DNA of 57,161 nt. It comes from Candidatus Poseidoniaceae archaeon. GTDB taxonomy: Archaea > Thermoplasmatota > Poseidoniia > Poseidoniales > Poseidoniaceae. Where the stretch lies: the NCBI GenBank assembly GCA_938084455.1, contig CALKDX010000002.1:1-57161 (forward strand), given 5' to 3'. The translations under genes and the position numbers were made by a program. The notes beneath the pieces were generated by a model. The model saw only the letters and a program-made list of their open reading frames with translations, searched no databases and was not told where the DNA came from. This document shows positions 1-24,894 of this stretch, piece after piece (within the stretch, counting starts at the first letter, position 1; each line of letters opens with the position of its first letter).

Positions 1-3000
1 GTAATACGTGTAAGCGCGATCTGCACAGACGTTGTATGACGATGGGTATCCGCCACCATAGCCTTCAGGAGGCGTGAATGGTCCGTTGGTTCCACCGTGG
101 TATGAGGTGTAGTAGAGAGCCCAGTAGTGGTACGGGTAGTAAGCGTAGGAACCGGTTGGGGTCACGCCATCGATGTTTTCCCACCCGAAGCCGAACTGAT
201 CTGGAGCTTCGTAGTAGCCAGGGTATCCCGGATTGGTCCCGGGGCCACCAGGCCAGTAGCGCCACATGTAGTAGAAGTAGCCTTCAAGCCCAGACGGGTA
301 GTTTGGCCCGAATGAGTAACCATAGTAGTCACATGACCAACTTGGCACACCACCGGTAGCACCAGCAGCGTAGGTAGCGGTTGTACCGACACCAGATGCT
401 GGGTCTGCTGAACTGTATGGGTAGTAACCGAGGTCAGAGGATTGGGTGACGTTCCAAGCGTTTCCGTTGCTGTCTTCCAACTCAATGTTGTATCGGTCAG
501 TGATCATGTAGTACTTCGTGGTAGCGTAGTTGTATGTTGGGTGAGCGTTACCGCCACCGTAAATACTGTTCCAGCCAACTTGGAGGTAGTCCTGCGAGAG
601 GTAGGTCGACAAGTCGATCTTGTACGTTTTCCAACCAGTGCTTTCACCGCTAAGCAAAGTGCTGCGGTAAACGGTAGGCAAGGACATACCACCGTACACG
701 TCAACACCAACGGTGTTGTCGGTTGCGGTGAATCCATCAACCTGAGGAGCGCCGTTGTAGGATTGAATACCAACTGCAGCGTTCTTTACGATGATGTTTT
801 CGATGGTTCCGCCGGATGCTTCAACCCACAGTGCGGTACCGGTTTGTCCGGTGTTAATGATGCTTGAATCTGCGATGTTTGCAGTTCCGCCATCAACCTT
901 CACCGTAGCCATTTCTGAGTTCGATGCGGAGGCACCAAACACTGTAGCGCTGTTGCTCATGACAAGAGTAGCACCGTCACCGATTAGGAGAGCAGCACCA
1001 GTTGTGGAGTCTTGAGCGACGTCACGGAGAACACCACCGTCGAGTTCGAGGGTTCCATCTTGGATGTCCATGTGGAGCCCGTAGGTAGACGAAACAGCCT
1101 TCACAGTACCAATAGCACCTGTGTCAGGTGACACAGTTACCTTGAGTGAACCACCATCGCTGAGGGTGAGCACTGGGGAACTGGTTGCTGTGCTCTTGAC
1201 CTTTAGGACAGATCCCAAGAGGACAATGTTACAGCCGTCGAGTTCGAGGTCAGCAGCCAAGGTCATTGGAGTGCTGTCGAAGACGTATGCGTTGAGCGCA
1301 GCATCGTAGGTGGTTGCGAGGGTCACGTTAGCAGCAATCCATGCACAGTCCATACCTGCTTGATCGAATTCCACAGGAGCAGGTTCGAGCAAGAGGTCAA
1401 TGGTGTCCCCAACGGTGTAGGTTCCATCTGCTGGGTACCATGCATCCGTGTAGAGGGTTTCATTCTGTCCTGCTGCACCGAACGCACGCAAGTTGTGGTC
1501 GTCGTAGCTGTTACCAGATTCGTCAGCGGTGATGACCCATACAGTGGCCATACCGTTCGCATCGGTGATGTGGGAGCCAACTTCGAAGAGTTCAGATCCC
1601 GAAGAATCAACGACGGTTGCACTGACGTAGTGTCCAGATTTGTACACTGTAGTGGCTACGTTGTTGATCAATGCGTTACGGTAAGTGTAAGCTGTTGCCA
1701 GTCCACCGTACCAGATTTCCGAGGAGGATGAAGCAGTCACCTTTCCATCAGTTCCATCGTAGGCGGAGGTAGCTCCGTCAACGAGGACGTGAATCAAGCG
1801 GACATCCGAGTTGGTGTCTGCGTAGGCAAAGTCTGCAAGTCCGGTACCGGAGGTGGTCACGTCAGTTTGACCGATGGTGACATCGGAGTATCGGGCGTAA
1901 ACCATTGGATCAACGGTGTTGGCGTGGGTGATGTCTCCATTCTCGATGGTCATCGTGTTCGCAGCGATTGAACAACCATTGGAACTGACACCGGTAGTTG
2001 TGACAGTGTTCATGTGGATGTTCCAACCACAACCGCTCACTGAAATGTCAGTAGCGACCATGTTGTTCATAGGCACCAAAGTCGAGGTGATTGCATTACC
2101 AGTCATCGATAGCGAACCAATGGTCACGCTATCGAAGGTTCCAGGTTGCACACGGGTCATGGCGGTGTCACCAGCGGTCACGTCGTCGAAGACGGCGTTA
2201 TCTTCTGATGGTCCGTTACCGGTGCTCGCTGTTCCACCAGGGGTGATGGTCATGGTTGCGGAACCGAAATCGACGGTTGTCATCATGATGGCGTCCATAG
2301 CTTCGATTGAAACCGATGCATAGTCGTCTGCGTCAAAGTTGTGAAGCACCACTTCGCTGCCACTGCCTGCTGCGGATCCGAATGCGGTTCCGGTTTGGGC
2401 GCTAGCTGCGTTAGCGGTCACGTTGCTGACGGTGACGGATGCAAAGTCGACATCGATGAGGTTGACATATGCGTTGGTCACTGTAGTGTTCTCTAGGAAG
2501 AGAGCACCGCCAGTCGATCCGGCGACGTTGACGATTGCACCACCAGCGGAGTTTCCGTCGGTGTTACAGTCCTTCATGGTACCTTCAGTGAGTGTTGCCA
2601 CGGTGTCTTCTGCGAAGTCGAAACAAGCAGAGTCTGCGCCGTCAACGCTGAAGTCGTTCATGGTCACCACAGTGCCTTGTCCGCTTCCGTGAGAGAAAGC
2701 AGAGCCGACATCGGTGAACGTCACATGGTCCATCGTGAAGTTACCAACGTTAGAGTTGGTGCTTGGCGAGGATCCGTGGCGTGAACCAGCGGAGATTGCA
2801 GCGTCAGAGGTGTTTGCGAAGTCAACGTAGGAGAAGGTATGACGGTCATCTGTGCCCGACGAGCAAGCAGCAGTGAATGCCATTCCAGTCCATTCAGCAC
2901 CATCTGCACCCTCGATGAGGATGTGGTCGGTGCTGTTTCCATTGAGCGTCATCTGATCGCAGGTACCGTCAAAGGAAATCCCCTTGCCGGCTGCGACCTG

Positions 3001-6000
3001 GATGGTCACACCTGGTTGCACAGTCAAATCAGCCGAAATGGTGAGGTAGTCACCGCTTGGGTTGATTCGGATTGGGCTGTCAGTAGCGTCCCATGTGGTG
3101 TCTTGGGTGATGTCGGATGTGACATCAGTACCCTTGCCTTCGAAAGGCATGGTTCGATAGTAGACACCGCAATCGACGTTTGTGTTCTGGTAGCAGTAGT
3201 AGGTACCGTAGTACGACCAGTATGGTGCGATTGTACCTGCACGAGCAAAGCTGCTCGAGGAGTATGGCAACTGTGGCATGTTACCATACCATGTGGTCAT
3301 ACTTCGAACCAATGCAGTGGATCCAGAACTCACAAAGTGCATGTTACCGTGTCGTCCGAGGTTGATACGGTCGTTGCTGTCTGTGTAGTTGTAATCAGTA
3401 CCGAAGTACGTAAAGTTGAATCCATCAGGCATTGCGATGTTATCAGCACACTTGTTCGCCCATGTGTTCCAGTAGTAACTGGATGCACAGTAGTAACCAG
3501 ACGGTTGACCACTGGATGAACCCGTGATTGCCGAGGCATCAGCGTTCACCAAGCCAGAGAGGCCACGGTCGAAAGACTCGAAGCTGCTACCGGTCGAAGT
3601 TGTTGAGATTCGGTAGTTGGCAGGGTGGGGGTTTGTTCCAGAGATGTACTGAGTGCTGGTTCGGTGTCGGATGGTTTGACCCATTGTTCGGGTTTGATCC
3701 ATGAATCCAACAGTGGCAGCATCGTACGAGTTGGTACAAGCGTCGTCGTACTTGAACTCGATTTCGTTGGTGACGTCATAGAAGACGGCTTGGTAAGTAC
3801 AGTAGTCATTCGAGGAGTAACCCATGTCTCGCCATTCAACAATGAACATCTTGTTTGGATCGCCGACTGTGAAAGATTCGGTCGATGTCGTCTGGGTGTT
3901 AATTCCACCAGCGACTGCCGATACGTCTTCAGCCTTCATGTAATACTCAACGGTGTCTCCACGTTCTAGGTCCTCGATGTCTGCAGACCAGTCACAGTTC
4001 GACAACGAACAATCTGCTCGTGTCTTACCAGATTCTTGAGTCATGACGACGGAGGTCCAGGAACCAGCGGTGCCGCCATCAGGGGTCACACGGTAGTACA
4101 TGGTTGGACCGACGCCAGCAGAGGTGCTCACGTTGAGACCTGCTGGTGGGTCGCCTGCATCAGCGATTGTTGCGGTGATCGTTCGTGACTTGCTGTGGGA
4201 ATCAGCAAGTGCAGAATGGGTGAATTCAGGTTTGAACGTATCAGGTGTTGGTGCAACATTACCGAACTTGTAGGTGACATCGCCAGAGGAGGCGATTCGG
4301 CCGTAGTAGCCCATACCGAGTGCGAATCCGCTCCACTTGTAGTTGGTGACACCAGAGTATGCACCAGCGTAGTAGTAGGCAGGGGAACAGTCGTTGTAAG
4401 AGCTGTATGGGCTGCGCCAGAAGTAGGTGAAACCATTGCTGGTCACACACAAGCGGTTAGCGTTTGTTCCAGCACCGCCGGTTTCGTTACCGAATCCGAA
4501 CTTGCCAAACATGCCACCGTAGTCGCTGCCCAAGGTGATCTTGTAGGCGTTGGTGTACCCGTACGATCGGCTGCCGTCAGCGGAGGTTCCGCCGTTGAGC
4601 GTTTCGTCGATTGAAGTCGATGTACCGATTCCAACCATTGCGAAGGCATCGCTTGAACTGTCGTAGAGGAACATGAGGTTCATTCCAGGACCGTTAGCAG
4701 CGGAGATGGTGAGGTATCCACCATCATCCTTGTGCAGTTGGTCGATGTTCGAGCGTGTTCCACCCATACCGTTGTACCCAGACGACGCAGTGGTCGTGTG
4801 CTGAGCAATCCAGTTCGAGTAGAAGTAGTACGACGAGGAGTAGAAGCAAGAGCTGCTACCGGTTCCACAAGACGAAGTATCGAATTCGAAGTAGAATTCG
4901 TTGCTGTCGTCGAAGTGAGTCATCTGTCGATCGAAGTATTGGTTTGCACCTGGCGAGTAGTAGTTTGCTGCGTGCACATCTGTGGTGAGCACAGTCAACT
5001 TCTTGGTGGTTCCAGCATCCACAACATCTTCCACTGCGAAGTAGTAAGGTGTCGGGGTGGTTTGGGCACCGGTCAATGCTGGATCGTATCCAACGTTTGC
5101 ACCGCCAGCGGTGTTTAGATCTTGGAACTTCCAATAGTACTCGACGTAATCGCCTGCAGAGATCGTCGCTGTGGTTGCCTTGAACTGGCACTCAGAGGAG
5201 GTCGAACTGCAGGTACCAATGCTGCTTGCTGTAACGCTGGTGTACGAACCGTTGTTGAGTGCGTAGTTGAGCGTTGGAGCGTTTGCAGTTGTGGTGTCAA
5301 TACCAGACATGTCGGTGAGGGTCGTGAAGAAAGTGCGGGCACCTTCAATGTACGATGTCACACCGCTGTATGGGACAAAGCCAGACAGAGGAGCGTCCGT
5401 ATCCGAGCCACCAGAGTAGGTGATTTGGATGTAGGAGTTCGACGAACCTGAGGTGTAAGCGTAGCTGTACAAGTAAGTCGATGACGTAATTCGTTGTCCG
5501 ATTCCGACGGTACCAGCGTTGGTTTGAGCGGACGTGATGTATCCCGCTGCGGTTCCGGAGGAACATGTAGCTGCGGAGGTACAAACATCAGCGGTCTTCC
5601 AGCTGTAACTGCTACCAATCGAGTAGGTGTCGAAGGATGGGCTGTTCCACAAGGAAGTGATCATTCGGCGGGATGCAGCGGAGTTGTAGCTGCTTCCTGT
5701 CAGGATCTGGCTTGCGGTCAGCGCTCCGGAACACGAAGCGGTTGGCATCGTGTGAGAGTACGACGACAAGGTTGGAGAGCCACAGTTCTCAAGAACGGTT
5801 GCGGTCACTGATGTCGAGGAAGAACCCGAGCGGTATTGGAGGTAGGACTTCCAGCTGATTGCGTCAACAGTAGCACCGGATGGCAGTGCGTTGCTGGAGG
5901 TGTAGGTGTAGCGGTGCCATGGCATGTATCGCATCTGAGAGTAGTACCGGTATGTGTAGCGGTAGGAACTGGAGTAACAGTTACGGTAGTAGCGGTAGCA

Positions 6001-7014
6001 GTATCCACCGGCGTTGCTGTAGACCTTGATGGTTGGGTCAATAGCAAGCGGGAACACACGGTCTTCAGACATCAACCACTCGGATTCCACTGCGGTCGTA
6101 ATGACAACTTGTGGGCCGTAGACTTGGATGAAGAAAGTCGCCGTGTAGGGTTCCGCAGAGCCTTCTTCCAACACAGTCGGGACTGGGATCTCTGCAAGGA
6201 GTTCACCGGTTTCGATGTGTCGGATTTCGAGGGCTTCCTGGGTTTGCGTCATTTCTTCGCCGAGCATGTTGTCGCCGAGGAAGAGAGCGAAACCGGATGG
6301 AATTTGGATGGTTTCTGAGAGACCGAACCAAGCAGCTCCTGGCTCAAGGACAGGTCGCTCGCGGATGACGAGGTTCTGCTTGAGTTGGGTTGACTCGACG
6401 GTGTAGTCGAGGTCGAAGCCTTCTGCGATCGGGTAACGGAGGACGTTTCCACCGACGGTCACGCCTTCTTGCGAAGGAGCAACGTGGTACGGTTGTGGCG
6501 CAGTGCCAGATTCGTCCAAAGTCACGATCATTGGTGCGATACCTGTGATGATTGGGTCAACAAATTGGTTTGGTTGAACCGCAACACCGTAGGCCATTTC
6601 AGGAGCGAAATGGGTCGTAAACGTGTTGTCAGCTACTTCCCAACCATTAGCAGTTGCGACGACATTCAAATCGATGTCTTCCCATGCACCACTGTCGTCC
6701 ATGAAGTGAACTGGCGTAGCGTGGTTGAGCTGCGCAAACTTGCCGTCTTCAGTGACGTAGGTCTTGGTCGTTTGGTCTCTCATGCCGATGAGTTCATCGG
6801 ATGGTTCTTGTTCATAGTCAGTTGCCTTCACAGCTTCTGGCAATGCAAAGAAGTCATTCTCTGCAGTGTCGTTTGAATCAACAAACTCCACGTCGCCTGT
6901 GTTGTTATCGACAAACCCAGCCATAGGCATTAGGGCCATCAAAGCGCACAACAACAGTGCGATGCCAATGCCGCTGAAGACTGACGTTTTCTTGGTGTTC
7001 TTATTTCCCAACAT
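1..7014 (-). CDS. Giant (>2338 aa, 3'-truncated by window edge) secreted Tyr-rich multidomain surface protein with WapA/RHS-type N-terminal domain and probable beta-helix region
   Basis: Not in the ORF track because the frame has no stop inside the window; no track ORF uses this frame. ATG at 7014 follows GGTGA. Manual translation gives MLGNKNTKKTSVFSGIGIALLLCALMALMPMAG (signal peptide), RDQTTKTYVTEDG..PVHFMDDSGAWEDIDL, GNVLRYPIAEGFDLDYTVESTQLKQNLVIR and WLMSEDRVFPLAIDPT. The same frame is still coding at base 1 (..SYNVCADRAYTYY). I spot-checked the frame rather than reading every codon. Confidence 0.9.
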   Translation of the reverse strand, partial: MLGNKNTKKTSVFSGIGIALLLCALMALMPMAGFVDNNTGDVEFVDSNDTAENDFFALPEAVKATDYEQEPSDELIGMRDQTTKTYVTEDGKFAQLNHATPVHFMDDSGAWEDIDLNVVATANGWEVADNTFTTHFAPEMAYGVAVQPNQFVDPIITGIAPMIVTLDESGTAPQPYHVAPSQEGVTVGGNVLRYPIAEGFDLDYTVESTQLKQNLVIRERPVLEPGAAWFGLSETIQIPSGFALFLGDNMLGEEMTQTQEALEIRHIETGELLAEIPVPTVLEEGSAEPYTATFFIQVYGPQVVITTAVESEWLMSEDRVFPLAIDPTIKVYSNAGGYCYRYYRNCYSSSYRYTYRYYSQMRYMPWHRYTYTSSNALPSGATVDAISWKSYLQYRSGSSSTSVTATVLENCGSPTLSSYSHTMPTASCSGALTASQILTGSSYNSAASRRMITSLWNSPSFDTYSIGSSYSWKTADVCTSAATCSSGTAAGYITSAQTNAGTVGIGQRITSSTYLYSYAYTSGSSNSYIQITYSGGSDTDAPLSGFVPYSGVTSYIEGARTFFTTLTDMSGIDTTTANAPTLNYALNNGSYTSVTASSIGTCSSTSSECQFKATTATISAGDYVEYYWKFQDLNTAGGANVGYDPALTGAQTTPTPYYFAVEDVVDAGTTKKLTVLTTDVHAANYYSPGANQYFDRQMTHFDDSNEFYFEFDTSSCGTGSSSCFYSSSYYFYSNWIAQHTTTASSGYNGMGGTRSNIDQLHKDDGGYLTISAANGPGMNLMFLYDSSSDAFAMVGIGTSTSIDETLNGGTSADGSRSYGYTNAYKITLGSDYGGMFGKFGFGNETGGAGTNANRLCVTSNGFTYFWRSPYSSYNDCSPAYYYAGAYSGVTNYKWSGFALGMGYYGRIASSGDVTYKFGNVAPTPDTFKPEFTHSALADSHSKSRTITATIADAGDPPAGLNVSTSAGVGPTMYYRVTPDGGTAGSWTSVVMTQESGKTRADCSLSNCDWSADIEDLERGDTVEYYMKAEDVSAVAGGINTQTTSTESFTVGDPNKMFIVEWRDMGYSSNDYCTYQAVFYDVTNEIEFKYDDACTNSYDAATVGFMDQTRTMGQTIRHRTSTQYISGTNPHPANYRISTTSTGSSFESFDRGLSGLVNADASAITGSSSGQPSGYYCASSYYWNTWANKCADNIAMPDGFNFTYFGTDYNYTDSNDRINLGRHGNMHFVSSGSTALVRSMTTWYGNMPQLPYSSSSFARAGTIAPYWSYYGTYYCYQNTNVDCGVYYRTMPFEGKGTDVTSDITQDTTWDATDSPIRINPSGDYLTISADLTVQPGVTIQVAAGKGISFDGTCDQMTLNGNSTDHILIEGADGAEWTGMAFTAACSSGTDDRHTFSYVDFANTSDAAISAGSRHGSSPSTNSNVGNFTMDHVTFTDVGSAFSHGSGQGTVVTMNDFSVDGADSACFDFAEDTVATLTEGTMKDCNTDGNSAGGAIVNVAGSTGGALFLENTTVTNAYVNLIDVDFASVTVSNVTANAASAQTGTAFGSAAGSGSEVVLHNFDADDYASVSIEAMDAIMMTTVDFGSATMTITPGGTASTGNGPSEDNAVFDDVTAGDTAMTRVQPGTFDSVTIGSLSMTGNAITSTLVPMNNMVATDISVSGCGWNIHMNTVTTTGVSSNGCSIAANTMTIENGDITHANTVDPMVYARYSDVTIGQTDVTTSGTGLADFAYADTNSDVRLIHVLVDGATSAYDGTDGKVTASSSSEIWYGGLATAYTYRNALINNVATTVYKSGHYVSATVVDSSGSELFEVGSHITDANGMATVWVITADESGNSYDDHNLRAFGAAGQNETLYTDAWYPADGTYTVGDTIDLLLEPAPVEFDQAGMDCAWIAANVTLATTYDAALNAYVFDSTPMTLAADLELDGCNIVLLGSVLKVKSTATSSPVLTLSDGGSLKVTVSPDTGAIGTVKAVSSTYGLHMDIQDGTLELDGGVLRDVAQDSTTGAALLIGDGATLVMSNSATVFGASASNSEMATVKVDGGTANIADSSIINTGQTGTALWVEASGGTIENIIVKNAAVGIQSYNGAPQVDGFTATDNTVGVDVYGGMSLPTVYRSTLLSGESTGWKTYKIDLSTYLSQDYLQVGWNSIYGGGNAHPTYNYATTKYYMITDRYNIELEDSNGNAWNVTQSSDLGYYPYSSADPASGVGTTATYAAGATGGVPSWSCDYYGYSFGPNYPSGLEGYFYYMWRYWPGGPGTNPGYPGYYEAPDQFGFGWENIDGVTPTGSYAYYPYHYWALYYTSYHGGTNGPFTPPEGYGGGYPSSYNVCADRAYTYY

Positions 7015-7403: not shown

Positions 7404-7434
7404 TGATGTTCGTCGATGAGAAGACTAGATGAGA

Positions 7435-10400
7435 TCAGTAATCCCAGTCTTTGTTCTCATCGTCCTCTCCACCACGGGAAAGGATGAACGCTCCAACAAT
7501 GAATGCTGCGAAGACAACACCACCGATAACGCCCCAAGTCCAGGTTGGAACCTCGCCGGCAGTCACATCGCCAGTGACGTTCGTTCCGTCATCAACGTTG
7601 GAAGTGTCTGCATCTCGCTGGTAGTCGATGCTGTTCAATGCCGCAGATGCAGCGGAGTTACCGAGTGCATCCACAGGAACCGCAGTGAAATAGTACGTGT
7701 AGGTACCTGCTGCAGTTGGCTTGTCGATGACAACATCAGTTGTTGTGGTCGATGCACATGTGGTTGGCATGTTGGCTGCATCGAATGTACCGCGTTGGTA
7801 GCACACATCCCATGAAGCAACATCGAATGTTTCGCCGGTAGCGTCCCAATCAATAACCCATGTTTCGCCAACTTCGGAAACTGCGAAGTTCATTGCTGAG
7901 ACCCCACCGTCGACAGACTTGTCTGCAGTGACATTGCCAACACCCTTTGGAGTGCTGCAACCAACATCGTTGCAGATTTCTACAAGCACGTTGTAGTAAG
8001 CACCGTGAACTGTGTTTGATCCAGAGTATGAGAAGGTGGATGTTCCAACACCTAATCCGGTAGTGAATGCATCTGCACAGCCAGCCTCACCTTCACAGAT
8101 GGTCACGTCAATGCTGTCAGAATCGAGCATTGTACCCTCAACATCCCAGTTGAGGACAATTGCTCCACCCTTTGCAGCAGCTGCGCTGAATCCAGTGATG
8201 CTCGCATCGGGGACATCGGCTTGGGCGAGTGAACCGCCCATGAGCACCAATGCTCCAGCAGAGAGCACAGGGCTGTCTGCAGGGATATCATAAGCGAACA
8301 TTTCAGTTGTAGCATCGACATCCGTTGCCTCAGCAACAATCAAGGTCCAAAGACCAGAATCTGTGACGTACCAAAGGGAGGTTGCTTCTAGGCTCTTTGG
8401 CAGTGTGACATCCATCGATTGTTCGAGGACATCCGATGCAGAGTAAGTTGTGCTTGGAGCGTAGTCAATGGCTCCGACTGCAGAGTAGGTGCCCGAGTAT
8501 CCAGGAAGTTCCTTGTTCTCGTAGTTTGAGAGATCGGCATCGGTAGCGTTCAGAGAGAACGCATCTGGTGCTTTGTACTTGAGAGCGTATGAAACTGACA
8601 ATCCGGAGTCAGTGGTTGCCGAGGCACCGCCGTTGTTCCAGATGAACAGCATCATTTCTTCGCTGGTTGAGCCACCGTTTGAATCGTAAACAGTGAACGA
8701 AATTGGGAAGTCAAGCACATAGGTGTCGAGCACAGGAATTGTGCAGGTTTGTGCTGTGGTAGAGCGCTCGCAACCAGGCAGAGCAGCACCGCTGTAGGTC
8801 CAAGCGTACTCAAGGCCCATTCCAGATGGTTCGTCAACGTCAAAGACCTGGGCAGACAACTGCAACGGCTCTTCTTGGTTGGTGAACAAGTCGCCCTCAT
8901 TCATCAAATCCAGGGAAAGAATCAGTGGGTTGTTGTTTCGAACATCCACGGTCATGGTTCGATCGTTGTTGGATGGGCGTGCGTCGAGGGCATCCTTGTG
9001 GACGAGTTCTAGGTCGACGCTGAAGGTGTGTTCGCCGGAGTCCAAGGTGACCATCATGCAAGCGTATCCGGTGAGTTCTCCCGGTTGGTCAGGGTTACCA
9101 TCGCCGTCGGAATCGTACAAAGCGGTTCCAAGTTGCTTGTAGGTGTAAGCAGGTTCAATACCGGTCTCACAGGAATTAGTGACCACGGTTTGGCTTTCTC
9201 CAGCCTCATCAGTCACGGTCAGTGTAGCATCCCATGCGTAGTTTGTGGAAGGATCGCTACCGCGGTGTTCGACTTCGACGTGGAAGTATGAGACACCGAC
9301 GTTCAAGTCAGTAGGAGCATCATCGCTCATCATGCTGGTAGGGTTACCTGTTCCATCTGCGTTGTAGCCTTGAGCCACAGTCATACGAGCAACTCGGATG
9401 TCGTGGTAAGTTGAGGCGCTTCCGAGGATTTCATCCTCGTTGGTTTCCGGATAAGAATCCTGAGTGAATTCTTCTTCACAGATATGGTTGAGCGTTTCAT
9501 TGGTTGTTGGATCAGTTTCGATACAAGAATCCCATTGGCTGTACTGAGTGTAAGACAACAACTGAGCAGTCAATTCATAGGTGGAATCAGATTTGTTTGA
9601 ATCAAAGGTCAATTCCCCGGTGTATGTCCACTCGGTGTTGTATGCCAGAACGTTGCGTGTGGCGTTCGTGATGGCTGGAGGTTCGGTGGAAACATTGGTG
9701 AATGTTTCGACGGTTGTTGCTGTTCCAACGGTGACATCGTGGAAAGCCGTACCGAGGATATCGCCGTCGACGGTCGATGTGAGCCCGGTGACATCGCCAC
9801 CTGCCTTCAGGCGGATGACAACTTCACGAGGATTGAATGTGTCCGAGCCGTTTGCGAGAACAGAAAGAGTCCATGCTTTGACACCTGGGCCAGATTCTGC
9901 GGCTTCTCCGCTGTCCCAAGAGAGGTCGACTTGAATGTCGTACCAGTTGACGACGCTGACCTCGATGGTTTGAGCATCGTTTCCAGCATCGACATCGCTT
10001 GGCGTGTCGGCGGTGATTTGGACAATGTAATCACCAGGCATTGGCGTCCATACGATTGGGTTACCACCGTACATCAAGATGTACTTTCCGCCGCCCAAGA
10101 CACCGCTTGCAGCAAGAGAGGTGAAATCACAGAGGCTTGCAGATCCGCAAATAACATCTGTGTTTTGCCACTGGAGGTCGTTACCAGCAGCGTCCTTGGC
10201 GATCATGGATTGACCGCCGCTCCCATCGTCGAGGTAGACAGTTACGGTGTACGACATTTCTGTGATGTCGACATCACCGCTGTTTTGAATGTAGGCTTCG
10301 AAGTTTGTCGCTTCGCCTGCATTCAATGTGTTGCGGCAGCCTGCTTGGGTACAGACGGTTTCTTTCGGGCTTGTTATGGCGATGACTTCAGCATCTGCAC

Positions 10401-10518
10401 CGGCACGGGCGCTGCTTTCGTCAACATCAATGGTTTCTTGCAACTCGGCGATGTCAATGCTAGAGAGTAGACTTAGCATCAACATGGCAACGAGAATCAT
10501 AGGGGTTGTTTTCTTCAT
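7435..10518 (-). CDS. Secreted acidic beta-rich (Ig/FN3-like) cell-surface protein with C-terminal TM anchor
   Basis: 1027 aa; signal peptide MKKTTPMILVAMLMLSLLS; GGAGG upstream; several N-x-S/T sequons; C-terminal TM (WTWGVIGGVVFAAFIVGAFIL) and tail SRGGEDDENKDWDY. Confidence 0.85.
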   Translation of the reverse strand: MKKTTPMILVAMLMLSLLSSIDIAELQETIDVDESSARAGADAEVIAITSPKETVCTQAGCRNTLNAGEATNFEAYIQNSGDVDITEMSYTVTVYLDDGSGGQSMIAKDAAGNDLQWQNTDVICGSASLCDFTSLAASGVLGGGKYILMYGGNPIVWTPMPGDYIVQITADTPSDVDAGNDAQTIEVSVVNWYDIQVDLSWDSGEAAESGPGVKAWTLSVLANGSDTFNPREVVIRLKAGGDVTGLTSTVDGDILGTAFHDVTVGTATTVETFTNVSTEPPAITNATRNVLAYNTEWTYTGELTFDSNKSDSTYELTAQLLSYTQYSQWDSCIETDPTTNETLNHICEEEFTQDSYPETNEDEILGSASTYHDIRVARMTVAQGYNADGTGNPTSMMSDDAPTDLNVGVSYFHVEVEHRGSDPSTNYAWDATLTVTDEAGESQTVVTNSCETGIEPAYTYKQLGTALYDSDGDGNPDQPGELTGYACMMVTLDSGEHTFSVDLELVHKDALDARPSNNDRTMTVDVRNNNPLILSLDLMNEGDLFTNQEEPLQLSAQVFDVDEPSGMGLEYAWTYSGAALPGCERSTTAQTCTIPVLDTYVLDFPISFTVYDSNGGSTSEEMMLFIWNNGGASATTDSGLSVSYALKYKAPDAFSLNATDADLSNYENKELPGYSGTYSAVGAIDYAPSTTYSASDVLEQSMDVTLPKSLEATSLWYVTDSGLWTLIVAEATDVDATTEMFAYDIPADSPVLSAGALVLMGGSLAQADVPDASITGFSAAAAKGGAIVLNWDVEGTMLDSDSIDVTICEGEAGCADAFTTGLGVGTSTFSYSGSNTVHGAYYNVLVEICNDVGCSTPKGVGNVTADKSVDGGVSAMNFAVSEVGETWVIDWDATGETFDVASWDVCYQRGTFDAANMPTTCASTTTTDVVIDKPTAAGTYTYYFTAVPVDALGNSAASAALNSIDYQRDADTSNVDDGTNVTGDVTAGEVPTWTWGVIGGVVFAAFIVGAFILSRGGEDDENKDWDY

Positions 10519-10756: not shown

Positions 10757-13700
10757 TTATGATTCTCTGAGGGCCGCAGAAGGCGGTATCATCGAGGCTT
10801 TACGGATCGGATAAGCTGTCGCACAAATCACCAATGCCATCCCTCCTACGAGAACTGCCAAAATCGTCCCATAAGGCAATGTGAAGGCAGCACCTTGCCC
10901 CTCCCAGAACGTTTCATACAAGGCACGATGGAATCCAATCGCAATCAACGCACCGTTGATCATTCCAAACACAGCCACCCAAACGACTTCGATGGTGAAC
11001 GTGGCCATCACCATGCTTCGCCGATAACCGAGTGCACGCAGGATTCCGATTGTCTTTGTGCGTTCGGAGACCGAACGAACCGTCACAACCCCGATCCCAG
11101 CAATCCCTACAATCAGACCGAGCGCGAGGTAGGCTTCAAAGATGGCTAGCAAGGCAAGCACGAGCGATTGAATCACCATGACGTCCTTGGCAATAATTGA
11201 GATTTGAACTCCTTCGCTGTTCAGGGTGTTCTCAAGATCCTCTGCCAATTCAGCAGCTGCCGTTCGTGCATCTCCAGGTTTGCCCATTGGCGGCATGGAT
11301 TCATCCTCAACAAATTCCTCGCTGGATTGAGCCTCATCTTTGACGCTGACATACATTCGCGTCAATCGCCCATCGAATTGTTCCGAAGTCACATCATCTG
11401 AAATCCAGACGCCCGCAGAGAACAAATATGAGGATTGTTCCATGAACCCAGCAACCTTGACATCACGGGTGTTTCCGGGGTTTGAAATATCAATTAGTGA
11501 AATTGATTCCCCAATTGAAAAACTGAGCATCGATAGACCGCTACCATCTGCTACAGACTCGAGGCCAAATGAAGCGTCAACAAACACCAAATCATCCCTT
11601 GAACCAACCGTTATCCACGCTTCTCGCTGAGATTCACCAAGGCTTGGATCCCACTGGTACAATGGCAATCCCCCATGGGATGAAAAATTCTCATCAAAGC
11701 CCCTGAGAAGGTAGGGCATTCGATCGCCTTCGCCGTTTTCTAAAAACACTTGACTTCGTTCGATGCGAGCGACAGAATCAATGGACGATGCGACGGATGA
11801 GGTCAGATTCCATTCTGCGGGGTCATCAGGTAACTCGATTGGACGGGACATTGAACCTGTGAGGAGAAGTTCGTATTCACCCTCTGCGTCTTCAACGAAT
11901 GAACTGGAATAATTGTCAAATTGCTCGGCATACCCACCAAGGACCACCACCGAAAACACAGTGATTGAGAACATACCCATCACCACAGCCGTTCGAACCG
12001 GTGCTGCGAGTGGATGGGCGAGAGCAACTGGCAAGACAGGTCCAAATCGTTTTGTCAATCGCTTCGATTTTCCAAGCCGTCCAACAAGCAAGGGTGCTGC
12101 ACTTGTCAGCAAAAGTACACCAGCAAACACTTCCACAAGACCAAGCACGATGAACGACAATTCGTCAGGCGTCATCCCTTGGCGCACGGGATCGATGCCG
12201 TGCAGGCCAACGGTCCAAATCAACAAAGAAAGACCGAGCACACCCAATGTGTTTCTGCCTGCATGACGGTGAAGATTGGCCCATGCTTTGGAACGTGCCC
12301 GCAGGAAGGTTGGCACTTCCAGAGTCAGTGCTGGAACGAAGGCAATCAAAAAACAAACGCCAGACACAACCCAAGTGAAGTATGCAAAGGAACTTTCGAG
12401 ACCAACAACCGCCAAGACCGCAAGGCAAAGCGCCCCCGTTCCTGCAAAGAGCACCTGAATCAACACAAGAAGCCAAGACACCGACCCTGTAGAGGGTTCA
12501 CGACCACCCCTTAATGCCACCACAATATTGGTTCGTGCCGTCCACACAGCGGTGCACCAAAGGGTTAGCATTGCAAGTAAAAAGCCCCAAGCCCATCCAG
12601 CAAAAACGGAACCCAAGGTCCATTTGAAAACAAATTGACCAGATCCTACTGAACTGAACATTTGTTGGAACCCAATGCTGATGAACCATGCCAAACCAAG
12701 TCCAAGAATCGAACCAAGTGCAGCGGATACGCTACCTACAAGCCCCCCTTCCATCACGGCAAGTGCGCGTGCATCAGATTGTGATAATCCAATTGAACGG
12801 AGGGTGCCAAATTCACTTCTTCGTGCTTCTGCAAGCATCAGGACGATGGTGAGGACCAAAAGCACGCCTGCTGCGATTGTGAACGAACCAAACACAAGGA
12901 ACATTGCTGCAAGAACACCTGAAGATTCTGCAGCCATTGCCGCAGCCTCGATTTTTACCGCCTGTACATTGAGGTTGAGGTCTGAACCCGTCGCTTGTTC
13001 ATCAAACCAGGACTGAACCGTGATGGCAGTGCTGGAACTGTTTCCATCAAGAGATGTCAAAACAAGGAGATTTCGTTCATCTTCAGCGGCTGAGGCGAGG
13101 CGTTCTGCATCGGTCAAACTTACCAATCCTAGAACCACTCCGTCCAATTCAGAGAGGCCTTCTAACCCATCAACATCGGTGTAATATCCCGCGTTTGTCA
13201 ATCGATATGCCGTATCGTCACCAAAGGCGTAGGGAATCAATCCCTTCAGCCAAAAGTTCGCATCATCTTCTGGAAGATCCAGAACACTGAGCCGTTGACT
13301 GATCAGCATGGATGAATTTTCAACCTCGAAGGGTGCGTCTTGTCCGCCAAAGGCAAGCAGCAATTGAGGCATGGTTCCAAACCCACCCGCAGAAGAGAGA
13401 ACTGGCAATCTAATTGATTCGACAGTTTGGTCTTGTGCGTTCCAACGCAGCAGTCCCTCCTCAAAACTGCACCAGTGCTGAATGGGCGAAAAACCGCTCA
13501 CTGAGACGCTTCCATCGCAGCGTTGATGTTCAGGCACTGACGAGGTGCTTGGTACGAATGAAGGCCAGTTGTCTCCGTTGTAGACGCTGAACGTGCTGTT
13601 GAGATCAACCGTTTGGGATTCGTACCTTTCAATCGAAAGTAAGCCTTCAATTTCAAGGTAGAAACCATCGTCGATGAACAAATCAATGTTCAAAATTTTA

Positions 13701-15361
13701 GATGGAACATCCACGGCCAACAGTCGTTCTTGATGGGTGGAAAGATCGTGAGAAAAATGATGCAGGAGAAGCGCTTCATCATCAGCTTCAATTGCCCACC
13801 AGCCAGAGGAATCTGATACAAGGGTTCGCATTGAGGCGTCAGAGGAGTAGGATGCCCACTCCTCCGCATCGAGATCTTCTTCTGAGCCAATGACCAGGCC
13901 TCCTGCGTGAACTGCACCCCCCAATTGACCGTCAGATGAGAGTGTGAAATCATACAGTGCTCCCCCATCGGGGACCCTCCAAACCCATGCATCACCCAAT
14001 CCATCAATTTGGACACCGAAGCCGGAAGGACTCGAATGCCACAGCCCACGGGCTCCAACGACCAATTCATTCGGTTGGTTGTTTGCAAGCGTCAGCAATG
14101 ATTCATCTTCTAGGCTAAGATCAACCAAGGGTACTTGCAGGACTTCCATCATTGTATCAATGCCCAGAGAAGTTGTGTTTTCTCGCAAAGCCACCACATC
14201 CGTTCCTGCAAGACGCCCAAGGCCGGAAGTGGACGAAACACTGATGGTATCCGTTGAACCATCCACATCAAATTGTAAACCGATCGATTCAGCGGTCAGC
14301 GCATCATCAAGATGGAGTTCGAGCGCCTCAACAATCGATTCAATGCCTGCTGCGTGTTCATGGCTTGTTGCAACGGCATAGTGCAGGGTATTCACGCGGC
14401 CATCGAGTTGTTGCAAGCGTTGAGCGGTGTGAAGATCGGTAAACAAAGCAGGTGTCGAAGTCCCTGCTGCAGCGCCTTGACCAGTGTTTGCTACCACCTT
14501 CAAAACAGATGCATTGGCCGTTAGCCGTTGTCTTTGATTGTCATTTGTGACATACCAGCCCAACTCGATAGAATCACCCTCTGTGAGATTGAGTTCTGCC
14601 GCCAGCACAGCATTGACCACAACCATGAGTGGGCGTTCCGGGCCGTTTGTGGTTGCGATTTCAGCATAGCGAATCCCGTTTGAACCTCCGATACCAGGCC
14701 AGACTTCATTTTCGTCAATGAAGCCATCAAAGGCCAACCAAGTGATGCTGGGAAGGGATCGTTCCTGCCCCTCAACACTTACACCCGCAATGAGGCCTCT
14801 CTGTTGGCCGAGAAGTGTCTTGGAAAGTTGGAGGTCGGCCTGGGACTGATTCCAGATTGAAGAGCTCACATCCTCGCTTATCGTCACACGCTCCCCTGTT
14901 GAGAGATCAAATCCACCAATGGTGATGTCTGTTTCACCCCAAGCGCCCTCGACCTCGTATTGCACGGTCGCATCCAGTGAATCACCAACCACCAAGGAAG
15001 AGGTGATAATGGCAGAAGCAATGATGAGGCCGAGCATGAGCAAGGCTGCTTGGCGTTTGCGCCGCATTACAGTTTCACGAGCCAAACGCCAGACTACAAG
15101 CCGTTGAGGGATCAACAGTGGTTGGACAAAAACAAGAGAAATCACACCGAAGGAAATGGCTCCCACCAACCGAGTTGCCCCGTCAATCAACCACCAATCA
15201 AGAAGCAAAAAAGCGAGTATTGTGTCTGCAACTGGCACACCGATAAGGGCGAGCAAGCGTATGCTGGAGGTCGAATGAGCACGCCAAAGGCTCCACGCTG
15301 AAACCGTTGCCAAGAAGGCAACAATCATCACAACGAGAGCCAGTGGGAGGAGCAGATTCAT
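10757..15361 (-). CDS. ABC transporter permease, FtsX/MacB family (tandem-duplicated, very large extracellular insert)
   Basis: 1534 aa; two FtsX-type motifs (EARRSEFGTLRSIGLS and SERTKTIGILRALGYRR); multiple TM clusters; overlaps the ATPase stop (ATGA). Confidence 0.88.
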   Translation of the reverse strand: MNLLLPLALVVMIVAFLATVSAWSLWRAHSTSSIRLLALIGVPVADTILAFLLLDWWLIDGATRLVGAISFGVISLVFVQPLLIPQRLVVWRLARETVMRRKRQAALLMLGLIIASAIITSSLVVGDSLDATVQYEVEGAWGETDITIGGFDLSTGERVTISEDVSSSIWNQSQADLQLSKTLLGQQRGLIAGVSVEGQERSLPSITWLAFDGFIDENEVWPGIGGSNGIRYAEIATTNGPERPLMVVVNAVLAAELNLTEGDSIELGWYVTNDNQRQRLTANASVLKVVANTGQGAAAGTSTPALFTDLHTAQRLQQLDGRVNTLHYAVATSHEHAAGIESIVEALELHLDDALTAESIGLQFDVDGSTDTISVSSTSGLGRLAGTDVVALRENTTSLGIDTMMEVLQVPLVDLSLEDESLLTLANNQPNELVVGARGLWHSSPSGFGVQIDGLGDAWVWRVPDGGALYDFTLSSDGQLGGAVHAGGLVIGSEEDLDAEEWASYSSDASMRTLVSDSSGWWAIEADDEALLLHHFSHDLSTHQERLLAVDVPSKILNIDLFIDDGFYLEIEGLLSIERYESQTVDLNSTFSVYNGDNWPSFVPSTSSVPEHQRCDGSVSVSGFSPIQHWCSFEEGLLRWNAQDQTVESIRLPVLSSAGGFGTMPQLLLAFGGQDAPFEVENSSMLISQRLSVLDLPEDDANFWLKGLIPYAFGDDTAYRLTNAGYYTDVDGLEGLSELDGVVLGLVSLTDAERLASAAEDERNLLVLTSLDGNSSSTAITVQSWFDEQATGSDLNLNVQAVKIEAAAMAAESSGVLAAMFLVFGSFTIAAGVLLVLTIVLMLAEARRSEFGTLRSIGLSQSDARALAVMEGGLVGSVSAALGSILGLGLAWFISIGFQQMFSSVGSGQFVFKWTLGSVFAGWAWGFLLAMLTLWCTAVWTARTNIVVALRGGREPSTGSVSWLLVLIQVLFAGTGALCLAVLAVVGLESSFAYFTWVVSGVCFLIAFVPALTLEVPTFLRARSKAWANLHRHAGRNTLGVLGLSLLIWTVGLHGIDPVRQGMTPDELSFIVLGLVEVFAGVLLLTSAAPLLVGRLGKSKRLTKRFGPVLPVALAHPLAAPVRTAVVMGMFSITVFSVVVLGGYAEQFDNYSSSFVEDAEGEYELLLTGSMSRPIELPDDPAEWNLTSSVASSIDSVARIERSQVFLENGEGDRMPYLLRGFDENFSSHGGLPLYQWDPSLGESQREAWITVGSRDDLVFVDASFGLESVADGSGLSMLSFSIGESISLIDISNPGNTRDVKVAGFMEQSSYLFSAGVWISDDVTSEQFDGRLTRMYVSVKDEAQSSEEFVEDESMPPMGKPGDARTAAAELAEDLENTLNSEGVQISIIAKDVMVIQSLVLALLAIFEAYLALGLIVGIAGIGVVTVRSVSERTKTIGILRALGYRRSMVMATFTIEVVWVAVFGMINGALIAIGFHRALYETFWEGQGAAFTLPYGTILAVLVGGMALVICATAYPIRKASMIPPSAALRES

Positions 15362-16056
15362 TCCTCCTCAGCCTGCATTGGGTCACCGATGATCAACCCG
15401 TCTTCCATCTGGAGGACACGATCGCAGAGTTCGGCAATTCTAGCATCGTGAGTCACGATGAGAAATGTCGTTTGATGTTCCTCGTTGATTCGTTTTAGGA
15501 GCGCTAGGACTTCTTCGGAAGTTTTCGAATCAAGGTTCCCTGTAGGTTCATCACACAGGATAACCGCTGGGCGGTGAACCACTGCACGAGCAACAGCAAC
15601 CCGCTGTTGCTGGCCACCAGAGAGTTCTGCGGGCCGATGTTGGCTGCGTTCAGCCAAACCGACGTCCGTGAGGGCCTGCATGGCACGCGACCGAGCCTCG
15701 CTCGCAGCAACCCCAAGCAAAAGCAAGGGCAATTCCACATTCTCCACCGCCGAGAGGACAGGCAGGAGATTGAAATCTTGGAAAATAAATCCGAGGTAAT
15801 TGGAACGCATTGTCGTTCTTTCATTGTCACTGACACCAAACAGAGGTCTGCCATCTACGAACACATCACCTGCACTCGGGACATCAATCCCACTCAGCAC
15901 ATTGAGCAGGGTGGTTTTGCCGCATCCCGATGGCCCCATGATCGCCACCATTTCACCAACCTTCAGAGTGACATCGACGCCCCGAACCGCTTCAACGGTT
16001 GAGGTCCCGGAAGCATAGAGTTTCCATACACCAGTGGCTTGCATTGAGGTGCTCAT
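15358..16056 (-). CDS. ABC transporter ATP-binding protein, LolD/MacB family
   Basis: Walker A GPSGCGKT, signature LSGGQQQRV, Walker B ILCDEPTGNLD, H-loop VTHD. Confidence 0.95.
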   Translation of the reverse strand: MSTSMQATGVWKLYASGTSTVEAVRGVDVTLKVGEMVAIMGPSGCGKTTLLNVLSGIDVPSAGDVFVDGRPLFGVSDNERTTMRSNYLGFIFQDFNLLPVLSAVENVELPLLLLGVAASEARSRAMQALTDVGLAERSQHRPAELSGGQQQRVAVARAVVHRPAVILCDEPTGNLDSKTSEEVLALLKRINEEHQTTFLIVTHDARIAELCDRVLQMEDGLIIGDPMQAEEE

Positions 16057-19543: not shown

Positions 19544-22500
19544 CTACCATCTTATCCTGTATGCAATCAATAATCCGCCAAGAATGGTTGGCACAAGGGC
19601 CATGGCCAATAATCCAAGAATCAAGCTCTGTACCTCACCCTCATCGTCCATTGCTTGAGGTTCGATTTCATCGGATGCAGTTTCGTTGCATGTGGTGACA
19701 AAGGGGTTGCATTCGATGCCGCTTTCTTCCTCTTCTGGTGTATCGTAATCCAAATCTTCTGTCAGGTCCTGGCACCCGTCTGCATCTGAGTCGGTGACGT
19801 TGTAAGATTGCCAATCCAAGTCGCCTTTTTGACACGAATCATCCAGATCAGTGACGCCATCATTGTCGTCATCGAGATCTTCTGTGGCGTCGCGGCATCC
19901 ATCGCCATCGTAGTCGAGCACGGAATCTGAAATCCAGTCCAGTTCCCCTACTGGACAGTTATCGTACAAATCTTCAACCCCGTCGTTATCATCATCAATG
20001 TCTTCAGTCAGGTCCTGACATCCATCAGAGTCATGATCTGTTGTTAAGTTTGATTCCCAGTTTAATTCACCATCGAGGCAGAAATCAACTGAATCCAAGA
20101 CAAGATCGTTATCGTCATCAAGATCTTCGAGTTGATCTTGACATCCATCCGAATCAAAATCCGTTAGGGAATTAGAAAACCAACCCAAATCCCCTGTAGG
20201 GCATTCATCGGTTATGTCCAAAACAAGGTCATTGTCGTCGTCGAGGTCTTCACCAGAATCCTGACAACCATCGCTGTCATAATCTGTTATGGGTGATGCA
20301 AGCCAATCGACATCCCCTGCACGACATTGGTCCAAGAGGTCGAGGATTCCATCGTTATCATCATCTGGGTCTTCAAGAAGGTCCAAACACCCATCTGAGT
20401 CCTTATCCAAGGTCGGAGAGGGAACCCAACCAACTGTTCCAAGAGGACATGTATCTTCCTCATCGGGATATGAATCATTGTCATCGTCTAAATCTTCATC
20501 ATCATCTCTACAGCCATCGCCGTCATGATCTGTCGCTTTGGTTGAACTCCAATTCACTGCACCCTTGCAGTCGTCAAAAATATCTGCGACTTTGTCATTA
20601 TCATCATCCGAATCCTCTGTTGCGTCCAAGCAACCATCGCCATCATAATCCAAAGTTGGGGATGATGTCCAATTTAAGGTACCAGATTTGCAAGAGTCGT
20701 AATCGTTCAATACCCCGTCATTGTCCCAATCATCGTCTTCATACGTGTCATAGCAGCCATCTTGGTCGTAATCAATGCCAGGTGTGGGCTCGGAAATCCA
20801 ACCAACGATTCCCTTCGGGCATGAATCCGCTTCATCAAGGATACCATCGTTATCGTCATCAGCATCTTCAACATCATCTTTGCATCCATCGGCATCGTGG
20901 TCCGTTCCTGATTCGGAAAGCCAATCAAGAATCGTGAACGGGCATAAATCGTTTGAATCGAACACACCATCATTGTCATCATCGACATCTTCCCCGGTGT
21001 CTTGGCAGCCGTCTGAATCAAAGTCGGTCTCAGCAGTTGGAGTCCATCCCACATCCCCTCGAGGACATGAATCTGCACCGTCAAAAATTGAATCGTTATC
21101 ATCATCAGTATCTTCCCCATCATCCCAGCAACCGTCGGCATCATGGTCTGTTGAAGGGCTGCTGATCCAGCCTAAATCTCCATAGTGGCAGTCATCGGAA
21201 ACATCGGGAACTTCATCATTGTCATCATCAAGGTCCTCTTCCATCGAAAAGAATCCGTTGTTCCACATGTCGTCCATACAGCCATCGCTGTCGTGATCAC
21301 CGAAGTTCGCAGAGGACCAGTTCCAGTGTGTAAATCTGGGGCAGAGATCATCGCTGTCAAGGACCCTGTCGTTATCGTCATCGAGGTCCTCCCCGACATC
21401 TCGGCAGCCGTCACCATCCCAGTCCGTAATCAGATTTTGATCAGGGTCCACGAACACTGAAATCCATCCAACATCACCTGTCTGACACGCATCGAGGTTA
21501 TCTGGCACCCCATCGTTGTCGTCATCGTTGTCTTCCGACGCATCATTGCATCCATCCGCATCGTGATCAGTGGTCGCATTTGAAGTCCAACCTAAATCTC
21601 CCGGCATGCATTGATCATCCACGTCGAGGATGAGATCATTGTCATCATCGTTGTCTTCTGTTGCGTCTCTACAGCCATCCGAATCATAATCATTGGCCGG
21701 ATTCGAAACCCAACCAAGTTCACCGAGGCGGCAATCGTCGTTCACGTCTGCCACGCCATCGTTATCGTCGTCTAAATCCTCTTGCGAATCTTGACAACCA
21801 TCGCTATCATAATCTGTTGCGTTAGATGAAACCCAACCGATGTCTCCTCGCACGCAAACATCCTCATTGTCGATGACTCCATCGTTGTCATCATCGGGAT
21901 CTTCTGTGAGGTCTTGGCAACCGTCCGAGTCGTAGTCATTGGCAGGGGTTGGCGTCCAGTTCATTTCCCCCTTTGGGCAGTTGTCGTTAAGATCAATGAC
22001 GCCGTCGTTATCATCATCCGTGTCTTCTAACGCATCTTGACAACCATCGCTGTCATAGTCGGTTGTACTATTTGATGTCCAACCAATGTCACCAGGGGTG
22101 CAATCATCCACGTTGTCTAAGTAGCCATCGTTATCATCGTCAGGATCCTCAGTGGAATCTCTACAACCATCACGGTCATGATCATTCGCAGTGGTGGAAG
22201 TCCACCCAAGTTCTCCGTACTGACAACGCTCATTGTCTTCCGAGAGTGTCCAATTACCGTCTAACCCTGCATCTGGAATGCCATCGTCGTCATCGTCAGA
22301 GTCGCATGGGTTCCCTGCGCCATCTGAATCATAATCCTCTTGTCCACTGTTGGAGTGATTGGGACAATTGTCGCTCGAATCTGAGACGCCATCATTGTCG
22401 TCATCTGCGTCTTCTGTGGAATCATTACAACCGTCGCCATCCCGGTCCGTGGCCCAGCTTACCGTCCATCCTAACGACCCTGTTGGGCACTCATCAGGAG

Positions 22501-24781: not shown

Positions 24782-24894
24782 GGAATCACCATATTCTCTA
24801 TCTGTTCTTTTGTCTCTGCTTCCACTTAGATGTATTGACAGGGTCGTCAACTCGGACGCAAAGAACTTCATGCCATAAACACCGACGAAGTGTT

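Follow-up and report, generated by a model that had tools for sequence, protein, structure and literature searches.

We analyzed a stretch of 57,161 nucleotides (nt), in the following called the window, from a Candidatus Poseidoniaceae archaeon belonging to Poseidoniales, the order also called Marine Group II (MGII). The window comprises the first 57 kb of contig C2 (CALKDX010000002.1) of an assembly of 1.93 Mb, which consists of 131 contigs and is rated 85% complete. At its left end, positions 1..7014 of the minus strand form a single open reading frame (ORF) of 2,338 codons, with its ATG at 7012–7014 and an open 3’ end, as seen in an ORF listing that admits open ends and in a translation free of internal stops. 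The original prediction, made from the sequence alone, had pointed out that the ORF track missed this frame of more than 2338 amino acids (aa), and the frame is confirmed here. The frame stops at the left edge of the window because contig C2 ends there. We found it to be the 5’ part of a single giant gene, hereafter the giant, which encodes a surface protein of 4,513 aa and continues on contig C29 of the same assembly. The features of the giant are as follows:

1..7014, minus strand: the 5’ 7,014 nt (codons 1–2338) of the gene, which has 13,542 nt and encodes the surface protein of 4,513 aa (open frame, continuation on C29 and ortholog in the related genome G208)
1..882, minus strand: overlap with C29:1-882 (reverse complement), 98% identity
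C29:883-7410, same assembly: remainder of the gene; the frame on C29 has 2,469 codons with the stop at 7410
6916..7014, minus strand: aa 1–33, basic N-terminal region and a hydrophobic stretch of about 21 residues (read from the translation, kept in orthologs)
6019..6807, minus strand: aa ~70–332, N-module ending in a conserved FP..IDPT strand (homology and predicted galactose-mutarotase-like beta-supersandwich)
5410..6009, minus strand: aa ~336–535, Tyr/Cys/Ser-rich domain with a predicted CBM96 (DNRLRE-domain) fold, containing LPSGATVDAISWKSY
3148..5409, minus strand: aa ~536–1289, Tyr/Ser/Thr/Gly-rich region (composition)
1750..3147, minus strand: aa ~1290–1755, right-handed parallel beta-helix (predicted fold)
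694..1719, minus strand: beta-sandwich insert at aa ~1766–1853, then a second run of short beta-strand coils to aa ~2107 (secondary structure of model residues 477–564 and 613–818)

The overlap between the two pieces contains 17 differences, 11 of which fall on third codon positions, with five resulting amino acid changes; this is the pattern of two strain variants breaking the assembly and not of a gene end. In G208, a genome of the same genus in 6 contigs, the gene is intact with 13,542 nt and 4,513 aa. Its product is identical to the window piece at 2292 of 2338 residues and to the C29 piece at 2421 of 2469, both without gaps. Both pieces are also colinear with the 4,595-aa protein P0020 (55% and 60% identity), the C29 piece beginning at P0020 residue 2074. 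A public contig of 9,706 nt (runs X2 and X3, which have equal record lengths, may be one data set filed twice and may also derive from the source sample) spans C29:1-3000 unbroken and reaches 5.6 kb further upstream. Of the 17 variant positions, 13 have the window letter in this public contig, and no further difference is seen within the overlap. The overlap with C29, the colinear P0020, the intact gene of G208 and the spanning public contig therefore establish one gene of 4,513 codons, whose start codon is supported by orthologs sharing the initial MLGNKN...KKT sequence.

Judged from the translation, aa 1–33 are likely to act either as a Sec-type signal peptide or as a signal anchor. A lipobox at Cys23 was considered and rejected: the residue at -1 is Leu, and the Cys is missing in ortholog P0023. 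The N-module is located directly behind this signal sequence, from aa ~70 on, and takes the same place in homologous targets. All motifs of the series by which the protein had originally been linked to WapA/RHS and DNRLRE proteins are present: PVHFMDDSGAWEDID at aa 101–115, NTFTTHF at 130–136, GNVLRY...DLDYTV....LKQNLVI at 189–217, WLMSEDRVFPLAIDPT at 313–328 and, in the following domain, LPSGATVDAISWKSY at 377–391. Two of the spacings given for them were slightly off, however, since the gap between RDQTTKTY and the next G is four residues instead of three and that between GNVLRY and DLDYTV six instead of four. A stretch rich in Tyr was found as described, with 16 Tyr in aa 301–400.

We searched a library of 1.84 billion representative proteins with aa 60–345 using phmmer, which returned 1,513 proteins at E≤1e-3, of which 120 also reached E≤1e-10 and 22 E≤1e-30. 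Close homologs carry source names that include Candidatus Poseidoniales, Poseidoniaceae and Thalassarchaeaceae archaeon. Outside the orthologs from Poseidoniales, nearly the whole query is spanned by the matches, which lie at target residues ~20–450, those of full length at ~30–350. Proteins with an RHS core are matched at E 1e-13 to 1e-10, and one RHS-carrying match falls in a cluster named from a Clostridia metagenome-assembled genome. A Pfam scan of 28 distant matches (E≤1e-5) revealed RHS repeats in seven, CBM96 in one and sorting domains of the type IX secretion system (T9SS; Por_Secre_tail or CHU_C) together with SprB, GEVED or Ig_7 domains in nine; a Pfam family over the N-module was found in none of the 28. 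NCBIfam models placed DNRLRE_dom immediately behind the module in P0016, P0147 and P0109 and Rhs_assc_core in five of nine scanned proteins (P0017, P0018, P0082, P0087, P0109), and neither Pfam-A nor NCBIfam has a model that covers the N-module on any protein scanned. When 72,556 plasmids were searched with aa 60–570 (tblastn), ten records were obtained at E≤1e-3, from Paenibacillus (5), Streptomyces (3), Cytobacillus (1) and Rossellomorea (1). All ten matches cover only the N-module (query residues 10–278), and all ten genes are annotated as ‘DNRLRE domain-containing protein’. Among them is a Paenibacillus urinalis gene (NZ_CP118110.1; E 1e-8 over query residues 15–273) whose product of 1,626 aa carries DUF6531, RHS repeats and an RHS core; an 82-aa ORF comes after this gene.

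The kinship of aa ~70–330 to the N-termini of Firmicute and Actinobacterial WapA/RHS and DNRLRE proteins, which had been proposed originally, is thus borne out as sequence homology by phmmer, the Pfam and NCBIfam scans and tblastn, and the number of phmmer matches shows that the motif series does not arise by coincidence. In the Protein Data Bank (PDB) a phmmer sequence search with aa 60–345 gave nothing at E≤10, and the A1 profile gave only a weak match to the BMP9 pro-domain (E 0.068). According to a report of December 2025 (PMC12704120), WapA-CT1 of Streptococcus suis has an N-terminal wall-binding fragment in which ‘an unknown N-terminal domain’ is combined with a DNRLRE domain and with LysM repeats; we infer that this ‘unknown’ domain is the N-module.

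The head of the protein (aa 60–570) was modelled with AlphaFold2 from a 71-sequence alignment, with a mean pLDDT of 85.3 and a pTM of 0.84. Fold assignments were taken from an exhaustive VIA-align search, as Foldseek against the PDB gave only low-TM matches. Over most of its length the domain at aa ~70–332 is modelled as a galactose-mutarotase-like beta-supersandwich. FP..IDPT forms the last strand of this supersandwich and leads into the next domain, aa ~336–535, for which a CBM96 fold is predicted. R79, K84, H103, Y194, K212, W313 and R319 are further conserved residues of the head. Neither PF24517 nor NF033679 matches the window part at E≤1, so the CBM96 assignment rests on fold; the segment described earlier as DNRLRE-like accordingly has the predicted fold of a DNRLRE domain but no match to a DNRLRE or CBM96 hidden Markov model (HMM). 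The founding CBM96 structure is 7VBO, and its authors relate CBM96 to the DNRLRE domain at about 30% identity. Supersandwich and CBM96 folds are both typical of carbohydrate recognition.

Behind the head, the Tyr/Ser/Thr/Gly-rich region showed only a weak PKD_4 match at aa 604–642 (E 0.039, below cut-off), and an ESM Atlas search with aa 540–1295 gave one unnamed cluster at 0.89 and nothing usable. The segment aa 1290–2120 was modelled from 19 sequences with a pLDDT of 87.0, model residues 1–392 being well tested. Foldseek returned ten matches for this model at E≤1e-3, nine of which are chains of PL6 alginate lyases and one a self-associating autotransporter. The parallel beta-helix that had been considered probable is hence a predicted right-handed, pectate-lyase-like beta-helix at aa ~1290–1755. 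The second coil region (aa ~1902–2107) is probably another beta-helix, judging only from its strand pattern. The HMMs Beta_helix and NosD did not match the window part; in the C29 part NosD reached 21.4 bits against a cut-off of 23.6, and this part contains weak NosD, Big_9 and tandem-95 matches followed by a pilin match. The original prediction had seen no YD repeats, and this holds for the window part as well as for the continuation: at E≤1 both halves are free of matches to RHS/YD repeats (PF05593, TIGR01643), DUF6531, Rhs_assc_core (TIGR03696) and toxin domains, and so are five full-length orthologs at E≤0.01.

As to the C-terminus, either an RHS core with a toxin or a transmembrane anchor had been envisaged, and the continuation on C29 shows a membrane anchor together with a pilin domain. 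The segment AVSPVIATILMVAITVVLSGVI scores above both the Pfam and the TIGRFAM pilin cut-offs, with 36.4 vs 25.2 bits for Pilin_N (PF07790) and 32 vs 20 bits for arch_flag_Nterm. It occupies residues 2293–2337 of the C29 piece, which corresponds to about residue 4,337 of 4,513. Pilin_N was present in all five orthologs scanned. The match is preceded by the order SVPSF, APSLVAVSLTGLFVSALAF, SSRR and ADDEEE, and this succession of motif, helix, loop and pilin segment is in frame in six of six full-length orthologs. In ortholog P0028 the stretch from the helix to the pilin segment lacks any Met, which shows that the two are genuinely fused and that no separate gene has been missed. At least 200 residues of the 236-residue tail were matched in 22 of 31 genomes of the order (including the window’s own), and where contigs permit the tail sits in open frames of 4,510–5,478 aa.

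We also examined the genome for components that could act on these C-terminal elements. An archaeosortase A (ArtA) homolog is encoded in the window’s genome (TIGR04125, 101.8 bits vs a cut-off of 75), and PF09721 (exosortase) gave no match there. Peptidase_A24 (PF01478) was not found above its cut-off in this genome or in 30 relatives. This reflects the sensitivity of the model, since a divergent multi-pass candidate for the prepilin/preflagellin peptidase is present at G000:C26:4811-5806 on the minus strand, with a GGADAK motif and a near-threshold Arc_PepC_II score of 29.0 vs 29.9 bits. The candidate was detected in 25 of the 31 genomes and in all 22 that have the tail of the giant; in the sister family it was found in 4/4 tail-positive and 1/6 tail-negative genomes. 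As the genomes are related to each other, this co-occurrence may serve as a hint at a connection between the candidate peptidase and the tail. The same genome further contains stand-alone pilins with a nearly identical helix, among them one encoded at the end of a contig (G000:C108:9157-9443, plus strand), whose helix AVSPVIATILMVAITVVLAGVLFVWASSLAE differs from the pilin segment of the giant at only three positions.

Full-text word searches in the open-access subset of the literature yielded no description of a giant/pilin architecture in MGII or of a combination of PGF-CTERM and pilin. In Rinke et al. (PMC6461757) neither a pilin nor a giant or large protein is mentioned, and ‘pili’ occurs in the reference list only. 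The new elements of the present analysis are the connection between the head and WapA/RHS/DNRLRE proteins, the predicted folds of the head, the PGF-CTERM-like motif in the presence of ArtA and the candidate peptidase.

To determine the distribution of the giant, we queried a sample of 301 genomes from the phylum with the N-module. Matches were found in 37 of 42 genomes of the own family (the window’s genome excluded); in the sister family f3 the figure was 5 of 21, and in other families it was 15 of 237. The window’s genome has one copy of the gene. Open frames of 4,110–4,741 aa contain 29 of the 40 strong matches in Poseidoniales, the others being cut by contig ends or frame breaks. In two near-complete genomes of the same genus the giant is present as two frames, of 2,203 + 2,480 aa (G003:C1; 10 contigs) and 2,343 + 2,354 aa (G009:C1; 3 contigs), which could be due to a frame break in the gene or to an assembly error. 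Some members of the genus have a longer giant of about 5,500 aa (P0043 with 5,559 aa; open frames of 5,478–5,515 aa in G013, G173 and G241). In this longer form the N-module is more divergent (E 1e-18 to 1e-29) and the C-terminal tail is the same (P0043, G013). Four of five full-length orthologs (P0023, P0025, P0028, P0035) carry a cupredoxin (Copper-bind) domain in mid-protein at residues ~3100–3300, three of them above the Pfam cut-off, where the giant of the window’s genome has a different Tyr/Ser-rich insert. This suggests that domains may be swapped within the stalk.

Words sampled from window:1-3000 were present at a fraction of at least 0.90 in 14 marine or seawater DNA runs (10 studies) and at 0.41–0.86 in six RNA-library runs (4 studies). 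In one rRNA-depleted metatranscriptome contigs tile C29:1-3000 in several pieces, 12 of 13 of which have at least 99% identity. The presence in RNA libraries is compatible with transcription of the giant gene and is not proof of it.

The genes downstream of the giant code for a HAD hydrolase, for the small subunit of PolD and for CinA; no immunity-like gene was found among them. The gene directly upstream (7435-10518, minus strand), separated from the start of the giant by a 420-nt AT-rich spacer, encodes a 1,027-aa protein with an N-terminal signal, a C-terminal membrane helix and an acidic tail (…FILSRGGEDDENKDWDY), without any Pfam match. By these features it is probably another surface protein. 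Further upstream and on the same strand as both surface-protein genes, positions 10757-16056 encode an unusually long FtsX/MacB_PCD permease of 1,534 aa and an ABC ATPase, which are possibly linked to export or surface maintenance. An ORF of 1,775 aa at 19544-24871 (minus strand) has a sub-threshold thrombospondin type 3 repeat (E 2e-4) as its sole match. Thrombospondin-like genes are cited as adhesion markers in Poseidoniales (PMC6461757).

In summary, we favor the reading that the giant is probably a membrane-anchored, glycan-binding cell-surface adhesin of Poseidoniales with a stalk of beta-helices and Ig-like domains. Since carbohydrate recognition is what both folds of the head are typical of, a glycan is its most likely ligand. 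The head would be placed distally, and in relatives the same cassette is found on the wall-binding fragment of WapA and on T9SS surface proteins, which led us to read the protein as a giant adhesin. Export would occur through the N-terminal Sec-type signal. The C-terminal end would retain the protein in the membrane, comprising in order a P(S/G)F motif and a membrane helix, then Arg-Arg and a short acidic loop in the cytoplasm, and finally a pilin helix resembling a class III signal and a pilin globular domain of about 150 aa. In the proposed topology the long N-terminal part would be outside, one helix would run inward, RR and the acidic loop would be cytoplasmic and the pilin helix would run outward, leaving the small pilin domain outside as well. 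Beta-helices and Ig-like domains would form the stalk, and the two-domain head of supersandwich and CBM96 fold would sit at the end farthest from the anchor. The glycan bound may be, for example, a polysaccharide of particles or algae, or may belong to the surface of another cell. The gene with its length, the homology of the head, the folds as predictions, the Pilin_N match, the conservation and the occurrence in RNA libraries are established by the data, while glycan binding, topology, the adhesin role and any processing are what we infer for the giant.

Several other functions were weighed against that of an adhesin. As the main alternative it is conceivable, though we regard it as unlikely, that the giant is a tethered enzyme for the processing of polysaccharides, whose beta-helices would be catalytic (lyase, epimerase or depolymerase) and whose head would target the substrate, a task performed by CBM96 in alginate lyase and in chondroitinase. 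Lyases indeed often contain beta-helices and CBM96 modules. The chances are smaller still for a structural envelope protein, an S-layer-associated scaffold or spacer with a head that binds the cell’s own surface glycans. Such a function would be in line with the equivalent N-terminal fragment of WapA-CT1, which binds the producer’s own wall according to PMC12704120, with DNRLRE domains having first been noted in archaeal S-layer proteins and disaggregatase, and with the one conserved copy per genome. However, the gene was not found in 16 of the 21 sampled genomes of the sister family, most of which are at least 91% complete; the cell can therefore do without it, and this suits an accessory adhesin more than a core part of the envelope.

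The original prediction had seen an archaeal adhesin or glycan-binding envelope protein built on an export or autoprocessing module, in which the N-module would cut the conserved Asp-Pro (IDP|T) and free a fragment starting at PTIKV. The adhesin part of this proposal is the reading favored here, whereas the export and autoprocessing part is not supported and strikes us as very improbable. It is true that D326 and P327 are kept in 90% or more of the 71 sequences aligned, that P322 is invariant, and that the Asp-Pro bond lies exactly at the border of the two head domains. However, the N-module has a common carbohydrate-related supersandwich fold without protease-like features, the bond lies within confidently modelled strands (blocks with pLDDT 92 and 81), and export is already explained by the N-terminal signal sequence. 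Furthermore, PMC12704120 reports cuts in S. suis WapA-CT1 only after E735, D1819 and H2716 as determined by N-terminal sequencing, with the N-terminal fragment of about 82 kDa remaining whole. That the giant is an archaeal polymorphic toxin or contact-dependent competition protein of the WapA/RHS kind is hardly credible, as its head cassette is common to proteins with RHS repeats and Rhs_assc_core but every toxin-related domain searched for is missing from both halves and the five orthologs, the C-terminus with its membrane helix and pilin domain is conserved rather than polymorphic, and the downstream genes include none resembling an immunity gene.

Returning to the adhesin, a further-reaching and decidedly speculative version may be put forward, according to which the giant would be a pre-protein with tandem sorting signals. 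Archaeosortase A would cut the internal PGF-CTERM-like signal and leave a lipid-anchored ectodomain of 4,290 aa, and the divergent prepilin peptidase would cut the class III signal and release a free pilin. A single product would in this way bring both a giant glycan-binding adhesin and a pilin (or docking subunit) of its own to one place in the membrane. The head would represent a new and very widespread carbohydrate-recognition family of more than 1,500 clusters, without a name in Pfam and NCBIfam and common to two domains of life through archaeal adhesins, bacterial T9SS surface proteins and WapA/RHS toxins, and would choose the surface that is bound. If processed, the internal pilin signal together with the PGF-like signal would constitute an undescribed route of surface-protein sorting.

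The most abundant archaea in the surface waters of the ocean, the Poseidoniales, are still uncultured. The giant gene, with about 4,500 codons and one conserved copy, provides a concrete candidate for an attachment organelle, with a defined and expressible head of about 500 aa. More than 1,500 protein clusters, among them WapA toxins of Gram-positive bacteria, contain the N-module, which has no family model, and its ligand would bear on the choice of targets by RHS toxins and on archaeal adhesion alike. In PMC6461757 the only arguments on how Poseidoniales attach to particles and algae come from archaellum genes and thrombospondin-like proteins.

When the giant is compared to known systems, the two domains of the head resemble structures that act on or bind carbohydrates. 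To the mutarotase-like supersandwiches (the GH38 C-terminal domain, domain 5 of beta-galactosidase, the beta-domain of PL8 lyases and aldose 1-epimerases) the sequence identity is only 4–12%, and the likeness seen is one of fold. The second domain shares its predicted fold with CBM96/DNRLRE structures, namely the alginate-binding TM6-N4 (7VBO) and a chondroitin-sulfate-binding module (8WAB), but it differs from them in the missing HMM match and in being unusually rich in Tyr, Cys and Ser. The membrane end resembles PGF-CTERM proteins (TIGR04126) in the VPSF motif (APGF in ortholog P0035), the hydrophobic helix of about 19 residues and the SSRR, as in the genome’s own PGF-CTERM tails. In the giant, however, the motif is internal and followed by 238 residues instead of standing at the extreme C-terminus, and TIGR04126 did not match the protein at E≤1. 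Archaeal type IV pilins such as PilA1-6 of Haloferax volcanii have the same Pilin_N, but in the giant the class III signal is found at about residue 4,337, behind the 4,290-aa ectodomain and a membrane helix, and not at the N-terminus. With giant bacterial adhesins made of beta-helices or Ig repeats (the autotransporter passengers Ag43 and Vag8, and PfbA) the giant shares the beta-helix stalk fold, the large size and, as proposed here, a distal ligand-binding head, whereas anchoring and secretion are entirely different and the likeness seen is one of fold.

The closest comparison is that with the polymorphic toxins of the Gram-positive WapA/RHS group, which includes WapA of B. subtilis. Those compared by sequence have likewise a Sec-type signal, the N-module at aa ~50–330 and then a DNRLRE/CBM96-type domain. 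The giant lacks their DUF6531 plug, YD/RHS shell, Rhs_assc_core, toxin and LysM, and has beta-helices, Ig-like domains, a membrane anchor, a pilin domain and an archaeal host of its own. Going by its domain content, it would thus work like the WapA/RHS family without being a member of it, sharing the head but none of the parts that define a toxin.

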